Positions 6,840 to 15,329 of a stretch of DNA of 64,000 nucleotides are shown here, piece by piece (position 1 is the first letter of the stretch; each line of letters begins with the position of its first letter). Location: sequence record PQ505080.1; one strand, 5' to 3'. Source of the DNA: Escherichia phage HMD-6. Made by a program: the position numbers and the translations under genes. A model generated the notes under the pieces. The model worked only from the letters and a program-made list of their open reading frames with translations, did no database searches and was not told the origin of the DNA.

Positions 6840-6868
6840 TTGACATACGGCCCGACATAAAATACACT
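6840..6868 (+). promoter_or_regulatory. sigma70-type promoter
   Basis: TTGACA-17-TACACT. Confidence 0.5.
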
Positions 6869-6900
6869 AAAAGCACAAAAGACACTGAGAGGATAAAATC

Positions 6901-7299
6901 ATGAAAACCACCACCTTTAATTTTGATAATGCGGACTTTTCTTTTTCTGATGTCAATAACTGCCGCCGTGATCGTGGATTTTACAAGGCCTATAATCTGG
7001 TGGGCCTGGATGATGACAATAATTTGCACGAAGTAGCTGAGATCCGGTATTATGCCGCCGCCAGCGGGAACACTCATTATTGCGTTTTTTGGATACACGA
7101 CAACAAGAACAATAAGTACGGCTATACTGGCGGCAAGGCGAGCGGTCACGGTTACGATAAAGCTAACGCAGCACTTGAGAGCGCATTAAATGCTATGGGG
7201 ATCACTGCCGACGGCTGGATCTACGAAGAAGAGTTTTTGTCGGCACTTGCTGCCCATCTAGGGTATAAAAAGCACATTGTGACATGTGCCCACGAATAA
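6901..7299 (+). CDS. hypothetical protein (132 aa)
   Basis: ORF track; GAGAGGATAAAATCATG. Confidence 0.6.
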   Translation: MKTTTFNFDNADFSFSDVNNCRRDRGFYKAYNLVGLDDDNNLHEVAEIRYYAAASGNTHYCVFWIHDNKNNKYGYTGGKASGHGYDKANAALESALNAMGITADGWIYEEEFLSALAAHLGYKKHIVTCAHE

Positions 7300-7305
7300 A
7301 AATCA

Positions 7306-7333
7306 TTGACACGCTGCAAAATTCAAGTAAACT
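7306..7333 (+). promoter_or_regulatory. sigma70-type promoter
   Basis: TTGACA-16-TAAACT; followed by leader hairpin GGCGGGAA-TGT-TTCCCGCC at 7344-7362. Confidence 0.5.
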
Positions 7334-7381
7334 AGACACAAAAGGCGGGAATGTTTCCCGCCAACACAAAGGAAAAAGATC

Positions 7382-7786
7382 ATGAATAAGAACGTACGCC
7401 GCATCATGAACGAGTTGGCAAACGATGAAAAAATTATTGACATGCATTTGATCAACATTTGCCGCCGTTGTGTAACATATAACAACCGCGCCGCAAAAGC
7501 GCGTGAGATGAACGCAAAAGGCACCTTAAAGCCATTCCAGGTGGTGGTAAAGGCCATTAAAAATGTAACTAATACGGCAAACCAGGTACAGGGGAACACC
7601 AACGAGAGTACCAATATTGATCCGGCTTACATCATGAAACGGATCCGGACCTGTAAGAACAAAGAGCAAGTGTATAATGTTATAGACTGGTTGGATTCTA
7701 TGGGCGACGTGGTGTACAATAGATTCTCGGCAGCTATTGAGATCCAGCTTGACAGGTTGGACGGTAAAGTACTGAAAACTTATTAA
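7382..7786 (+). CDS. hypothetical protein (134 aa)
   Basis: ORF track; conserved leader module. Confidence 0.6.
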   Translation: MNKNVRRIMNELANDEKIIDMHLINICRRCVTYNNRAAKAREMNAKGTLKPFQVVVKAIKNVTNTANQVQGNTNESTNIDPAYIMKRIRTCKNKEQVYNVIDWLDSMGDVVYNRFSAAIEIQLDRLDGKVLKTY

Positions 7787-7834
7787 GTTTATTTTTAGAT
7801 GGCCTTGACTCCAGGGCCATCAATAAAGTAAACT
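7787..7834. repeat. conserved 48-bp intergenic element, copy 1 (hairpin GATGGCC-TTGACTCCAG-GGCCATC)
   Basis: Near-identical to 8407-8455 and 12127-12173; sits immediately after a stop codon. Confidence 0.65.
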
Positions 7835-7984
7835 AGTCTCAACTAAGCGAAAAGGGGGCTTTAAGATGAGCATTGCACGCCAACACACAAAGGTAACTAT
7901 TATCGTTTGCGTTGTCGGTTACATCCTGGCGCAAATGTTAATGAGTAGCGCCAACAGTTTTGCAAAATTTTTCTTAAATTTTTA

Positions 7985-8012
7985 ATTGACAAGCTAACCC
8001 AAATCAGTATAC
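7985..8012 (+). promoter_or_regulatory. sigma70-type promoter
   Basis: TTGACA-16-TATACT. Confidence 0.6.
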
Positions 8013-8064
8013 TTAAACACGTAAACGGGAAAACTTCCCAGAACACACAAAAGGAGAAAACACT

Positions 8065-8406
8065 ATGACTACTATGACCGCCGCAGAAAAAGCTATGCAG
8101 ATCGCCGCGCTGAAAAAACAGATCGCAGACCTTGAGAACAAGATCGATAACTTTGAAATCGACGAGGACAAGTACGACGAAAACTATGATGACTGGTTAG
8201 ACGAGATCTACGGCGAAATTATGATCGGTAACATTTCTTTCCTTCCGTCGCGTATCCTCAAGGAGTTAGATCCTATTGCTTACCGCTGTGGATTTAGCGA
8301 CTACATCGACAGCCTGGATATTGAGGACGATGAAGAGTACCAGGAATTGCAGACAGAGTTGGAGGAAGTGAAAGAGGAACTTTTAGAGCTGGAAGAGAAC
8401 GAGTAA
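8065..8406 (+). CDS. hypothetical acidic protein (113 aa)
   Basis: ORF track; AAGGAGA RBS. Confidence 0.6.
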   Translation: MTTMTAAEKAMQIAALKKQIADLENKIDNFEIDEDKYDENYDDWLDEIYGEIMIGNISFLPSRILKELDPIAYRCGFSDYIDSLDIEDDEEYQELQTELEEVKEELLELEENE

Positions 8407-8455
8407 AATTTATTTTTAGATGGCCTTGACTCCAGGGCCATCAATAAAGTAAACT
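8407..8455. repeat. conserved 48-bp intergenic element, copy 2
   Basis: See 7787-7834. Confidence 0.65.
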
Positions 8456-8493
8456 TTACACTGTTAACACTGAACTAATGAGGAGTTAAAACT

Positions 8494-8739
8494 ATGGCAG
8501 CACTAATCACCAAATATTATGCGCCTACCAACACAAAAAGCGCCCGTATCATGGTAAAAGGCTTCGGACGTAAAAAGGTCTACACCTGGGACTATTCCTT
8601 AGACATGGAAGACAATTACACCAACGCGATGACCGACTTTATTAATGATCTGAATAAACAGATCTTGACCGACTACAAAGTGACCGATATTGCTTACATA
8701 GGTGAAGGCGGGATCTGTTTTGTAGGCATTGTGAAATAG
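8494..8739 (+). CDS. hypothetical protein (81 aa)
   Basis: ORF track; GAGGAG RBS. Confidence 0.55.
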   Translation: MAALITKYYAPTNTKSARIMVKGFGRKKVYTWDYSLDMEDNYTNAMTDFINDLNKQILTDYKVTDIAYIGEGGICFVGIVK

Positions 8740-8741
8740 TT

Positions 8742-8785
8742 ATTTTTTCGGTGGTCCTGGCTGCAGGGCCATCTATAAAGATAAT
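8742..8785. repeat. degenerate copy of conserved intergenic element
   Basis: TATTTTTTCGGTGGTCCTGGCTGCAGGGCCATCTATAAAG. Confidence 0.4.
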
Positions 8786-13579: not shown

Positions 13580-13653
13580 AACAGTTTGACAACAAACAAC
13601 AATCTAACAAAGCATAATACATAAGGCGGCAATGATGCCGCCAACATGACAGA

Positions 13654-13917
13654 ATGAGAAACATCATTTACAGATTGACAAAACGCAACATTATGATCGC
13701 CACCGTGATCGCTTGCCTTTTCGCTTTCGTGAGTAACGCAACGTTTAACGCCGTGGGCGGGGTGGTGTTTAATGCTGGCAGCGTTTCAACAGCTAACACA
13801 ATGATCGATTGTTTGCAACTTTTCTTTTATGTTGCCTTTCGTTTAAAAATAGCTTGCAAGGTAGACCGTTTTGATTTACCTTTTATTTGTGGCGGCGTGA
13901 TCGCTATCGTCTGGTAA
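13654..13917 (+). CDS. hypothetical hydrophobic protein (87 aa)
   Basis: ORF track; weak RBS; preceded by leader hairpin GGCGGCA..TGCCGCC. Confidence 0.4.
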   Translation: MRNIIYRLTKRNIMIATVIACLFAFVSNATFNAVGGVVFNAGSVSTANTMIDCLQLFFYVAFRLKIACKVDRFDLPFICGGVIAIVW

Positions 13918-14087
13918 AGTGTACGACATAGGGCGGGGCAATAAGGCAACGCCCATTAATAAGGGTGGAATCATGTTAGAAAAAATTTTCACGGTTGTAG
14001 TAGTTGGCCTGGCATTATCGGTTGGAGTGGTTGCAACTATGGCTAACATGATCCTATCTTCCCACGGTATCGGATAAGGTGAAACAA

Positions 14088-14303
14088 ATGTTCACGAACA
14101 AAACAGGAAAAACGGAATTTTTACGCAACTTACAGATCGGCAAACCTGAGATCTGGTATTGCACTAAAACACCACGTGACGAAATGAAAGATTTTACCGC
14201 CACGCTGAAGCGGGTAAAAATATCCATTACGCAGAAAAAAGCCTTGATAGTGGTGGAAGGTGAGATCCCTCAAACCGTTGTCATAGTTGAGCGTACAGCA
14301 TAG
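14088..14303 (+). CDS. hypothetical protein (71 aa)
   Basis: ATG 14088 after AAGGTGAAACAA. Confidence 0.5.
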   Translation: MFTNKTGKTEFLRNLQIGKPEIWYCTKTPRDEMKDFTATLKRVKISITQKKALIVVEGEIPQTVVIVERTA

Positions 14304-14392
14304 TTTAATCTATACCGTACGCCCCATTAACTAACAAAGCATAAGCAGGCGGCGGTGACCGCCTTGAACGCAACAGAAAGAGAATAGAAAAC

Positions 14393-14527
14393 ATGAGAAA
14401 GATAATTATTACCATGGGGATCGTGGCGGCAATGTTGGCGATCTTTCCCTTTATGGTTAGGTACGTGCTGATCAGTGTTGTCCTGATAGGCAGCGATCTA
14501 TTGGAAACGGTTGGCAACTGGTTTTAA
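14393..14527 (+). CDS. small membrane protein (44 aa)
   Basis: AGAGAATAGAAAACATG after leader hairpin; hydrophobic; below track cutoff. Confidence 0.4.
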   Translation: MRKIIITMGIVAAMLAIFPFMVRYVLISVVLIGSDLLETVGNWF

Positions 14528-14535
14528 GATAATAA

Positions 14536-14564
14536 ACAGGACTTGCAATGGTCCTGTTTTTTGT
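14536..14564 (+). terminator. rho-independent terminator
   Basis: ACAGGAC-TTGCAATG-GTCCTGT then TTTTTTG. Confidence 0.6.
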
Positions 14565-14598
14565 TATACTTATCTCACGGGTGGCACCTGGCGACGGG

Positions 14599-14627
14599 GG
14601 GAGACAATCACCGGGGGTGCCCGTTAT
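14599..14627. repeat. GC-rich 29-bp repeat, copy C (inverted relative to 6014-6042)
   Basis: GGGAGACAATCACCGGGGGTGCCCGTTAT is the exact reverse complement of copy A. Confidence 0.7.
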
Positions 14628-14648
14628 ATAAAAAAACTATAAAAACAG

Positions 14649-14677
14649 TTGACATCTGCCAGGTGGTTAGGTAACAT
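14649..14677 (+). promoter_or_regulatory. sigma70-type promoter
   Basis: TTGACA-17-TAACAT; leader hairpin GGGCAAAAGTGCCC follows. Confidence 0.5.
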
Positions 14678-14731
14678 TTATCTTGAAGGGGCAAAAGTGC
14701 CCACACAACAACCGGAAGAGAGGAAAACATC

Positions 14732-15004
14732 ATGTCAAGCTGGATTAATCAAGAAATCGAATCACGTTTTAATGCTATTTGGGATCTCATCGAAAAAGAG
14801 GACGGAACATCAAGCCCTTATCTCAATAACCTGGAATTTCATTTTGTGGAAGCGATGAACGCAGAACATGATCACGAAGGTGGCGCGGATGAGTTCGCTC
14901 AAGGGTATGGCTTCAACAATGCCAACGAAATGATTGAGGCGGTTGTACTTCAGGCTGAGGAAGATTATCAATTAAAAACACTTGAATTTTGCCGCCGTAA
15001 GTAA
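14732..15004 (+). CDS. hypothetical acidic protein (90 aa)
   Basis: ORF track; GAGAGGAAAACATCATG. Confidence 0.55.
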   Translation: MSSWINQEIESRFNAIWDLIEKEDGTSSPYLNNLEFHFVEAMNAEHDHEGGADEFAQGYGFNNANEMIEAVVLQAEEDYQLKTLEFCRRK

Positions 15005-15065
15005 TAAGATAATGACACGGGCCAAAAGGCCCACCAAACCAGAACCCCATAAAGAGGAAAACATC

Positions 15066-15329
15066 ATGAAACGCCTTGATCAGCTCAAACTAGTTCAGTA
15101 CATGGCCTACAAAATTATTGAAGTCCAAAAAGGTAGTAAAAAGGAGGTTTGCGAGAAAGCGTACAAGATCTTTACTCGTAAAAAAGATGATTGGATGTTG
15201 CGCCAGACCAAAAAGGCTGATATCCTGGGGTACCTGGAAGAAGAGATCCGGCTTGAAGAGCAAGAAGAGATCCGCCGCAGTGAGGCAGATTATCAGGCAG
15301 CTTGGAAAAGCTGGATGAAAAACAAATAG
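15066..15329 (+). CDS. hypothetical protein (87 aa), Lys/Glu-rich
   Basis: ATG 15066 after AAGAGGAAAACATCATG; leader hairpin GGGCCAAAAGGCCC. Confidence 0.55.
   Translation: MKRLDQLKLVQYMAYKIIEVQKGSKKEVCEKAYKIFTRKKDDWMLRQTKKADILGYLEEEIRLEEQEEIRRSEADYQAAWKSWMKNK

Follow-up and report, generated by a model that had tools for sequence, protein, structure and literature searches.

What does a short GC-rich hairpin do when it recurs, directly behind a promoter, in front of one small gene after another? We studied this arrangement in Escherichia phage HMD-6 (sequence record PQ505080.1), within a window that comprises the whole 64,000-nucleotide stretch of DNA analysed and to which all coordinates refer. 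Between 7300 and 15100, ten leaders on the positive strand present the same order of elements: a sigma70-like promoter, a GC hairpin beginning with G, an A-rich tract poor in T and G, a purine Shine-Dalgarno (SD) sequence and an ATG. This feature is real and strongly non-random. The explanation that we favour, and to which we give about an even chance, is that these are composite regulatory cassettes of the PeSL type, known from the T4-like phages RB49/phi1, PST/T4 and nt-1/KVP40 (Arbiol et al. 2010, PMC2839356; Comeau et al. 2014, PMC4122927), in which the hairpin, lying within the cassette's own transcript, would act as a 5' stabiliser or insulator for single small accessory, probably early, genes.

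Organization and enrichment of the cassettes

A preliminary description of this DNA had assigned the layout to at least ten genes. The enrichment behind that statement was recovered by a scan for promoters that match at least 8 of the 12 consensus positions and have a perfect GC hairpin 6-14 nt past the -10. The interval 6501-15500 yielded 10 matches, whereas 200 dinucleotide-preserving shuffles yielded 0.24 on average and never more than 2. Chance promoters before ordinary T-tailed terminators account for two of the 10, and the strict filter missed two weaker real cassettes (genes 8065 and 12742, genes being designated here by their start position). Counted by gene the figure is lower, since every element is present in only seven (7382, 9909, 10626, 12742, 13400, 14732 and 15066), while four others (8065, 11926, 13654 and 14393) carry partial cassettes. 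All the hairpins quoted earlier exist, none more than a few bases from its stated position, and further ones lie at 8027-8039, 11877-11891, 12697-12709, 14347-14364 and 14689-14702. The cassettes are paralogous repeats within the genome; that of gene 8065, for example, shows 76% identity over 66 nt to the cassette at 9824. Their positions and components are:

6557..6903, + strand: two leaders without hairpin; promoters at 6557 and 6840, starts at 6639 and 6901, both with AAAATCATG; repeat families D5, D12 and D19
7306..7384, + strand: cassette of gene 7382; -35 TTGACA (7306-7311), -10 TAAACT (7328-7333), A/C tract, SD, ATCATG; hairpin 7344-7362, GGCGGGAA-tgt-TTCCCGCC, fold -14.6 kcal/mol, z -4.3
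7986..8067, + strand: cassette of gene 8065; TTGACA-16-TATACT, leader ACACACAAAAGGAG, no ATC; weak hairpin 8027-8039, GGGAA-aac-TTCCC, 13 nt after the -10, z -1.1
9824..9911, + strand: cassette of gene 9909; perfect TTGACA-16-TATAAT, ACTAACAAAG tract, AGGAG, ATCATG; hairpin 9862-9880, GGCGGGAA-aac-TTCCCGCC, z -5.4
10541..10628, + strand: cassette of gene 10626; TTGCAA-16-TATATT, AACACAAAACAAAGAGGA, ATCATG; hairpin 10578-10600, GGCGGGC-9-GCCCGCC, z -5.0
11839..11928, + strand: cassette of gene 11926; TTGCAA-16-GATAAT, ACCACACAGACAAAG tract, no ATC; hairpin 11877-11891, GGGGAG-aca-CTCCCC
12657..12744, + strand: cassette of gene 12742; TTGCAT-16-GATAAT, ATCATG; hairpin 12697-12709, GGGGG-tgg-CCCCC
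13320..13402, + strand: cassette of gene 13400; TTGACA-16-TAGTAT, ACCAACCACAAAGAGGA, ATCATG; hairpin 13359-13373, GGGGC-aacaa-GCCCC
13586..13656, + strand: cassette of gene 13654; TTGACA, weak -10, start codon uncertain; hairpin 13625-13642, GGCGGCA-atga-TGCCGCC, z -4.4
14347..14395, + strand: partial cassette of gene 14393; A-rich leader, no convincing promoter; hairpin 14347-14364, AGGCGG-6-CCGCCT
14649..14734, + strand: cassette of gene 14732; TTGACA-17-TAACAT, ACACAACAACC tract, ATCATG; hairpin 14689-14702, GGGCA-aaag-TGCCC
14982..15068, + strand: cassette of gene 15066; TTGAAT-17-TAAGAT lying within the end of the preceding gene, ACCAAACCAGAACCCC tract, ATCATG; hairpin 15019-15032, GGGCC-aaaa-GGCCC

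The promoter hexamers score 8-12 out of 12, with spacers of 16-18 nt and A/T-rich runs upstream; stems measure 5-9 bp and loops 3-9 nt. Stems begin 10.3 +/- 1.4 nt (range 8-13) past the -10, whereas they lie 27.9 +/- 4.5 nt from the ATG and 68.6 +/- 54.5 nt from the upstream stop codon. The tight spacing on one side and the loose spacing on the others argue that the hairpin is positioned relative to the promoter, in agreement with the earlier proposal that it sits near the predicted 5' end of the transcript.

In the 12 nt after the stem A reaches 58%, C 27.5%, G 10% and T 4% (background 32/20/23/25), so that the spacer first called CA-rich is really A-rich, with moderate C, and poor in T and G. 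In predicted folds the leaders form a single 5'-proximal hairpin of -9 to -18 kcal/mol, with the tract, SD and AUG wholly unpaired; fold z-scores are -2 to -5 for most leaders and weaker in three (8065, 12742 and 14732). The ATCATG start also proved a true regional trait, ATC standing directly before the start in 11 of the 21 genes of 6500-15500 and in one of the 108 other window genes (Fisher p = 1.5e-9). As a part of the hairpin module it fared less well: it is absent at 8065 and 11926, occurs in the leaders without hairpin (6639 and 6901), and is also found behind a cassette of a second class described below (start 12218). The enrichment is best explained by common descent and exchange of the cassette 3' end, represented by repeat families D5, D12 and D19.

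Conservation among relatives

The 8.3-kb cassette region matches 246 phage records, nearly all of them Vequintavirus (rV5-like). Its 95% identity to Escherichia phages vB_EcoM_YN3 and FV3 places the host phage in Vequintavirus and not among the T4-like myoviruses. Nine window cassettes were aligned with those of nine relatives (10 genomes) and pairwise diversity was calculated for each class of alignment columns, with the following results, from the slowest class to the fastest: -35, 0.000 (invariant in 54 alignment columns); SD, 0.028; ATG, 0.031; -10, 0.054; stem, 0.071; promoter spacer, 0.108; segment before the hairpin, 0.108; third codon positions, taken as neutral proxy, 0.127; A/C tract, 0.148; the three bases before the ATG, 0.165; and loops, 0.219. 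The constraint clearly indicates that the promoters and SD sequences are functional, and the near-consensus sigma70 promoters that had been proposed gain from it in particular, the -35 being invariant in the 10 genomes while the promoter spacer drifts at about the synonymous-site rate. The stems are constrained; the loop, the tract and the ATC are not conserved as sequence.

Individual orthologues show how the stems change. In place of GGCGGGC/GCCCGCC, orthologues of the 10578 hairpin have GGGGGC/GCCCCC or GGGGCGAG/CTTGCCCC, with pairing retained. Orthologues of the 12697 hairpin present GGAGG(C/U)...GCCUCC versus GGGGG/CCCCC, and the pair of columns 22/35 is GC in five, GU in four and AU in one. 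The stem at 7344 is likewise retained while its loop is inverted (TGT<->ACA), and one orthologue of the 9862 hairpin has GGUGGG, which gives a U.G pair. Pairing that is kept while the sequence changes is the signature of a nucleic-acid structure and not of a protein-recognition sequence. RNAalifold run on MAFFT alignments reported little classical covariation, because the stems change by paired indels that MAFFT misaligned; folding each sequence separately was more informative for orthologous stems. The positive-strand fold was the more stable one in 35 versus 17 cases (p = 0.018), a difference that asymmetry of loops and dangling ends could cause. An arm-shuffling test (95% versus 59% paired) was discarded as circular, given that the hairpins had been chosen for pairing.

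The same cassette in other phages

The preliminary description missed that a PeSL-like cassette is common to other phage groups. The same layout was found in phAPEC8 (L016), in phi92 (L017, at least 11 cassettes) and in the jumbo phage 121Q (L018, L019): TTGACA or TTGCAA, 16-17 nt, TAnnnT, and 9-14 nt further on a G-first hairpin, such as GGCGGGAA(A)-tgg-TTTCCCGCC, GGGCGGCA-atag-TGCCGC or GGGGAGAA-tag-TTCTCCCC. Next come an A/C tail poor in T, a purine SD and an ATG, the last frequently within ATCATG in phi92 and phAPEC8. Over 53 distinct hairpins from the four phage groups, the distance from the -10 has a mode of 10 nt (range 5-15) and the 5' arms contain G and C in the proportion 240:56. 121Q and its relatives also share 66-69% nucleotide identity with parts of the array at 9958-13316; together with the common cassette, this suggests that early gene cassettes have been exchanged among large coliphages that are otherwise unrelated.

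Broader searches added few loci. A pattern scan of IMG/VR gave mostly chance matches, and the true cassettes that it returned were confined to contigs of the phi92/phAPEC8-like and rV5-like kinds; a protein-anchored search of the same database gave only two close loci; and BLAST of one cassette against all phages returned Vequintavirus orthologues only. A literature search for the hairpin sequences found no paper containing them, and one for transcriptome, start-mapping or half-life studies of rV5-like phages found none. The rV5 genome paper describes 33 sigma70-like promoters across the genome and 20 terminators; it mentions neither the cassette hairpins nor a phage RNA polymerase.

The published precedent, the PeSL, is a cassette of ~100 bp that comprises a strong sigma70 promoter preceded by an A/T-rich segment, a stable stem-loop that is often polyG-loop-polyC, and an SD and ATG (PMC2839356, PMC4122927). 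PeSLs are concentrated before ORFans in hyperplastic regions and are divided into five subclasses by stem-loop position, one of them 'downstream of the -10'; their proposed functions are to stop transcription arriving from upstream and to bring about the shuffling of genes (PMC2839356, PMC4122927). In the RB49 cassettes that we inspected (L020) the stem is mostly GGGGATC-nnn-GATCCCC between the -35 and -10, or it covers the -10; it lies 9 nt after the -10 in one of about 17. An A/C-rich leader (ACACACATACCGAAACGAA) and then GGAGAATCAAAATG complete the RB49 cassette.

A second cassette class and hairpins without promoter

Two further features of the array had escaped the preliminary description: a second class of cassettes, with the hairpin upstream of the start, and hairpins at gene junctions without promoter. 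The second class, family D1, consists of four copies of a 61-nt unit:

7774..7868, + strand: D1 cassette, repeat unit 7774-7834
8395-8496, + strand: D1 cassette, repeat unit 8395-8455
8726-8818, + strand: D1 cassette, repeat unit 8726-8786
12115-12220, + strand: D1 cassette, repeat unit 12115-12175

Each has a T-rich run, then a 10-bp hairpin, GAUGGCCUUG-acuc-CAGGGCCAUC, around the -35 TTGACT, and then TAAACT. In a variant at 8750-8773 the positive strand pairs only by way of G.U pairs, and this is kept in nine relatives with a variable loop, which argues for a positive-strand RNA structure upstream of the start of its own promoter. The gene junctions at 11016-11035, 13034-13051 and 14347 carry GC hairpins but no recognisable promoter. 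Such hairpins, together with the position of the D1 class, keep alive a role on read-through transcripts.

One more junction hairpin without promoter, at 13931-13955 (GGGCGGGGCaataaGGCaACGCCC), is the same element as is found behind good promoters in phi92 and phAPEC8. Of a promoter only the -10 (TAAAGT) remains there, and this lone survivor suggests a recombination breakpoint inside the promoter.

The hairpins compared with terminators

T occurs zero or one time in the first 8 nt after the stem in the window cassettes included in this count, and makes up 17% of the 8-nt tails of 37 cassettes; such T-poor tails argue that the hairpins are not intrinsic terminators on the positive strand. Canonical T-tailed terminators occur in the same array, at 9365, 11786, 12576, 14534 and 15342. 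Three cassettes (11839, 12657 and 14649) stand directly behind such terminators (11786-11805, 12576-12601 and 14534-14559), where a second terminator would be redundant.

Public records label these hairpins in two ways. The EdH4 annotation gives two of them, including that at 13359-13373, as 'putative transcriptional terminators' (L001 8545-8563 and 14896-14910), and the phAPEC8 record gives them as 'putative promoter determined with PHIRE' (L016 556-575, 937-956, 1787-1806 and 3202-3221). Both labels are probably wrong, and would be corrected by the present analysis.

Proposed role of the hairpin

According to the explanation that we favour, the E. coli RNA polymerase would start 2-5 nt upstream of the stem (the predicted start being 7-8 nt after the -10), so that the hairpin would be the first structure of each promoter-initiated mRNA, and transcription would continue past it, a U tract being absent. 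The hairpin may then serve as a 5'-proximal stabiliser or insulator, making the 5' end less accessible to RppH and RNase E and fixing the folding context, while the U-poor, unstructured leader would keep the SD open and offer few RNase E sites. Loops, tract sequence and ATC would carry no specific information and reflect common descent and cassette exchange, and the cassettes could act besides as short homologies for gene shuffling.

Protection against 5'-end-dependent decay was already suggested in the preliminary description. RppH is known to be blocked by a stem-loop at the 5' terminus (PMC8833179), and both the retained stem pairing and the predicted unpaired leader are consistent with such a role. 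RppH and RNase E, for their part, need at least 2 unpaired 5' nucleotides and prefer at least 3 (PMC8833179); against a predicted overhang of 2-5 nt, protection would be borderline and depend on the exact start. The mechanism is plausible but unproven.

Several observations weigh against a 5' stabiliser. The predicted overhang still meets the minimum of both enzymes (PMC8833179), and RNase E easily scans past orthogonal stem-loops (PMC9943677); the latter led us to reject a model in which the hairpin is an obstacle to RNase E scanning. The fixed spacing from the -10 could be partly inherited and not selected. Counts of G.U versus A.C, which should distinguish positive-strand RNA from a function as DNA or on the minus strand, showed no strand signal among the 53 paralogous hairpins (12 versus 17), and orthologous one-sided transitions gave 4 versus 1 (p = 0.375). 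The D1 hairpins, and usually those of RB49, lie upstream of the start and so cannot be 5' hairpins, and the junction hairpins noted above have no recognisable promoter at all. Finally, in the phi92, phAPEC8 and 121Q arrays the cassette hairpins are almost the sole intergenic hairpins, and only 4 of 37 cassettes have another terminator upstream.

A wider form of the stabiliser proposal draws on phage-encoded factors. rV5 encodes a homologue of T4 Srd (rV5 genome paper), and Srd stimulates RNase E (PMC4980113). We offer tentatively, as a rather doubtful extension, that rV5-, phi92-, phAPEC8- and 121Q-like coliphages share, by horizontal transfer, an 'early-gene plug' akin to the RB49 PeSLs, whose 5' hairpin and U-poor open leader would have evolved to exempt early mRNAs from the 5'-end-dependent RNase E/RppH decay that the phage itself boosts against the mRNA of its host. 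If so, the phage's own Srd-like protein would boost the decay that its early leaders resist. The question thus raised is whether early phage mRNAs are built to evade 5'-end-dependent decay.

Alternative explanations

The main rival to the 5' stabiliser follows from the read-through view of the PeSL authors: the hairpins would act on transcripts arriving from upstream, as attenuators or terminators or as 3'-end or intercistronic stabilisers, and so isolate the gene cassettes, with proximity to the promoter reflecting compaction or ancestry. We take this as a serious possibility, if not a probable one. Its best precedent is the stem-loop of RB49 PeSL211/210, which lowered downstream lacZ like rrnB T1 (PMC2839356), and it would accommodate the hairpins at promoter-less junctions, the D1 and RB49 hairpins upstream of the start, the D1 variant held as positive-strand RNA by G.U pairs, the scarcity of other upstream terminators in the phi92, phAPEC8 and 121Q cassettes and the terminator labels of the EdH4 annotators. 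It does not account for the tails, which have no U tract, hold 0-1 T in their first 8 nt and are below background in T, nor for a phage that terminates elsewhere with canonical T-tailed hairpins, three of them directly before a cassette; and the stem tracks the -10 (standard deviation 1.4 nt) and not the upstream stop codon (standard deviation 54 nt).

The palindromes could also matter mainly as DNA and contribute little to expression, serving as recombination homologies or hairpin-prone sites that let accessory genes be shuffled; we consider this unlikely. The comparison with the nine relatives placed breakpoints at 9896, 12525-12531, 13595, 13629-13643, 13910-13929, 14022, 14406, 14534/14559 and 15336. 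Those at 9896, 13595, 13629-13643, 13910-13929 and 14406 fall in cassettes, and that at 13629-13643, a gene-replacement breakpoint, is inside the hairpin 13625-13642. The paralogous nature of the cassettes, the inverted loop (TGT<->ACA) and the minicircles shown for PeSLs in RB49/phi1 (PMC2839356) agree with shuffling. Still, the cassettes make up roughly a quarter of the region and hold only about 5 of 10 breakpoints, the rest being at gene ends or terminators; that about half fall within cassettes is suggestive, though not significant with nine relatives. Neither the fixed distance from the -10 nor the open leader is needed for recombination.

Quite unlikely, in our judgement, is a further idea of the preliminary description, that the module is bound by a phage-encoded RNA-binding regulator, or more generally by a sequence-specific regulator of phage or host: a RegA-like repressor acting on ATCATG, or a protein recognising the hairpin. 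ATC is enriched before starts in this array only, and a few hairpins and loops recur across phage groups (GGCGGCA-atrg-TGCCGC and GGGAA-tag-TTCCC), as such a target might. The diversities point the other way, since within the genus the tract (0.148), the ATC (0.165) and the loops (0.219) evolve at or above the neutral proxy (0.127), and elements so unconstrained make a sequence-specific regulator improbable. The stems, moreover, vary between cassettes and change by compensatory substitutions, and the 121Q cassettes mostly lack ATC.

A role in terminating antisense (minus-strand) transcription, for which the A-rich stretch before the stem would be the T-rich tail on the other strand, is very unlikely. 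A scan does list 7344-7362, 9862-9880, 13625-13642, 11873-11895, 13359-13373 and 14347-14364 as minus-strand terminator-like, but the tails are interrupted (TGTGTGTT, GTTGATTG and CTGATAAG) and only two or three look efficient; the array has no minus-strand genes or strong minus-strand promoters, and the linkage to positive-strand promoters and the same layout in other phages would stay unexplained. That the conserved 20-mers are phage-specific promoters, as the phAPEC8 PHIRE entries coinciding with hairpins would have it, is hardly credible, given that PHIRE only reports repeated words, that a conserved sigma70 promoter precedes each motif by about 10 nt, that the motifs vary in sequence while retaining their pairing, and that the rV5 paper, with its sigma70-like promoters genome-wide, mentions no phage RNA polymerase.

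Genes of the array and other features of the window

The cassette region is an array of about 20 small genes, all on the positive strand and all annotated as hypothetical proteins in related records. Ten array proteins were scanned: all belong to PHROGs of unknown function, and the Pfam scan of the same ten gave no domain match. Among relatives the region undergoes gene gain, loss and replacement. That one self-contained, exchangeable unit of promoter, hairpin and ribosome-binding site stands in front of accessory genes in several phage lineages points to a common gene-cassette pool; it also offers a compact natural set of strong promoter and leader designs as candidate expression parts.

Elsewhere in the window we noted the following. 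A 47-nt repeat occurs three times in the intergenic gap at 5685-5870, with spacings of 65 and 74 nt. At ~15400-17900, where the positive- and negative-strand gene blocks converge, about 2.5 kb has no convincing gene and is rich in repeats: GTGTAAACTNTCAGG three times at 15-nt spacing (16277-16329), a 34-nt repeat pair (16069 and 16129) containing the palindrome AACTATnGATCnGATCATAGTT, an exact 20-mer repeat at 15987 and 16246, and a perfect 18-nt inverted repeat at 16020-16037/16154-16171. This gene-poor stretch looks origin- or iteron-like in its sequence. On the minus strand, promoter-like sequences lie at 23684-23704 (TTGACA-17-TATCAT) and 19429-19452 (CAGACA-18-TAGAAT); both are followed 6-8 nt on by an A-headed, T-tailed hairpin resembling a bidirectional terminator, and then by a ribosome-binding site and ATG, that is, a promoter-then-terminator order in the other gene block. 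Six clustered tRNA genes occupy 60477-61286, and the positive-strand block at the right end holds a group I intron at 62809-63087 (Rfam RF00028, 81 bits).

Comparison with known systems

Short hairpins near early phage transcription starts are also found in the N4 virion-RNA polymerase promoters, the lambda nut boxB and HK022 put. The cassettes differ in having no boxA, no conserved purine pattern in the loop and no two-stem put fold, and their loops are unconstrained, with a host-type promoter directly upstream. An Rfam search of the region gave no match at gathering score and one chance-level match (E = 0.91). N4-type hairpin promoters, nut/put antitermination and RNase III sites were rejected for their wrong anatomy and the lack of an Rfam match.

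With intrinsic terminators the hairpins share a GC-rich stem of 5-9 bp, a short loop and an intergenic position; they differ in standing downstream of a promoter and in lacking a U tract on the positive strand. With the 5' stabilising stem-loops of the E. coli ompA and papA mRNAs (Emory, Bouvet and Belasco 1992, as cited in PMC3997798) they share a simple hairpin of arbitrary sequence near the predicted 5' end and an accessible ribosome-binding site; they differ in that the 2-5 unpaired nucleotides predicted for the cassettes lie at the edge of the protective range.

The closest system is the PeSL. Alike are the sigma70-type promoter with its A/T-rich upstream segment, the adjacent stable G(n)-loop-C(n) stem and the 3' SD and ATG; the A/C-rich leader, as in RB49, and the dense arrays before small genes of unknown function in variable regions; and the paralogous copies, some with indel breakpoints inside, with a D1 class that overlaps the -35. 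Different are the T-depleted tail, which is not terminator-like, and the position of the stem, which in rV5-like phages, phi92, phAPEC8 and 121Q is 8-14 nt after the -10, inside the cassette's own transcript, a rare subclass in RB49. From promoter position, then, the dominant subclass here appears to place the hairpin within its own transcript. These phages are not T4-like either; a T4-like host is a taxonomic limit of the original PeSL description rather than a mechanistic feature. The PeSL features found in this Vequintavirus thus argue for a PeSL-like system in a non-T4 phage, and extend the PeSL idea to large enterobacterial phages of four or more further lineages.

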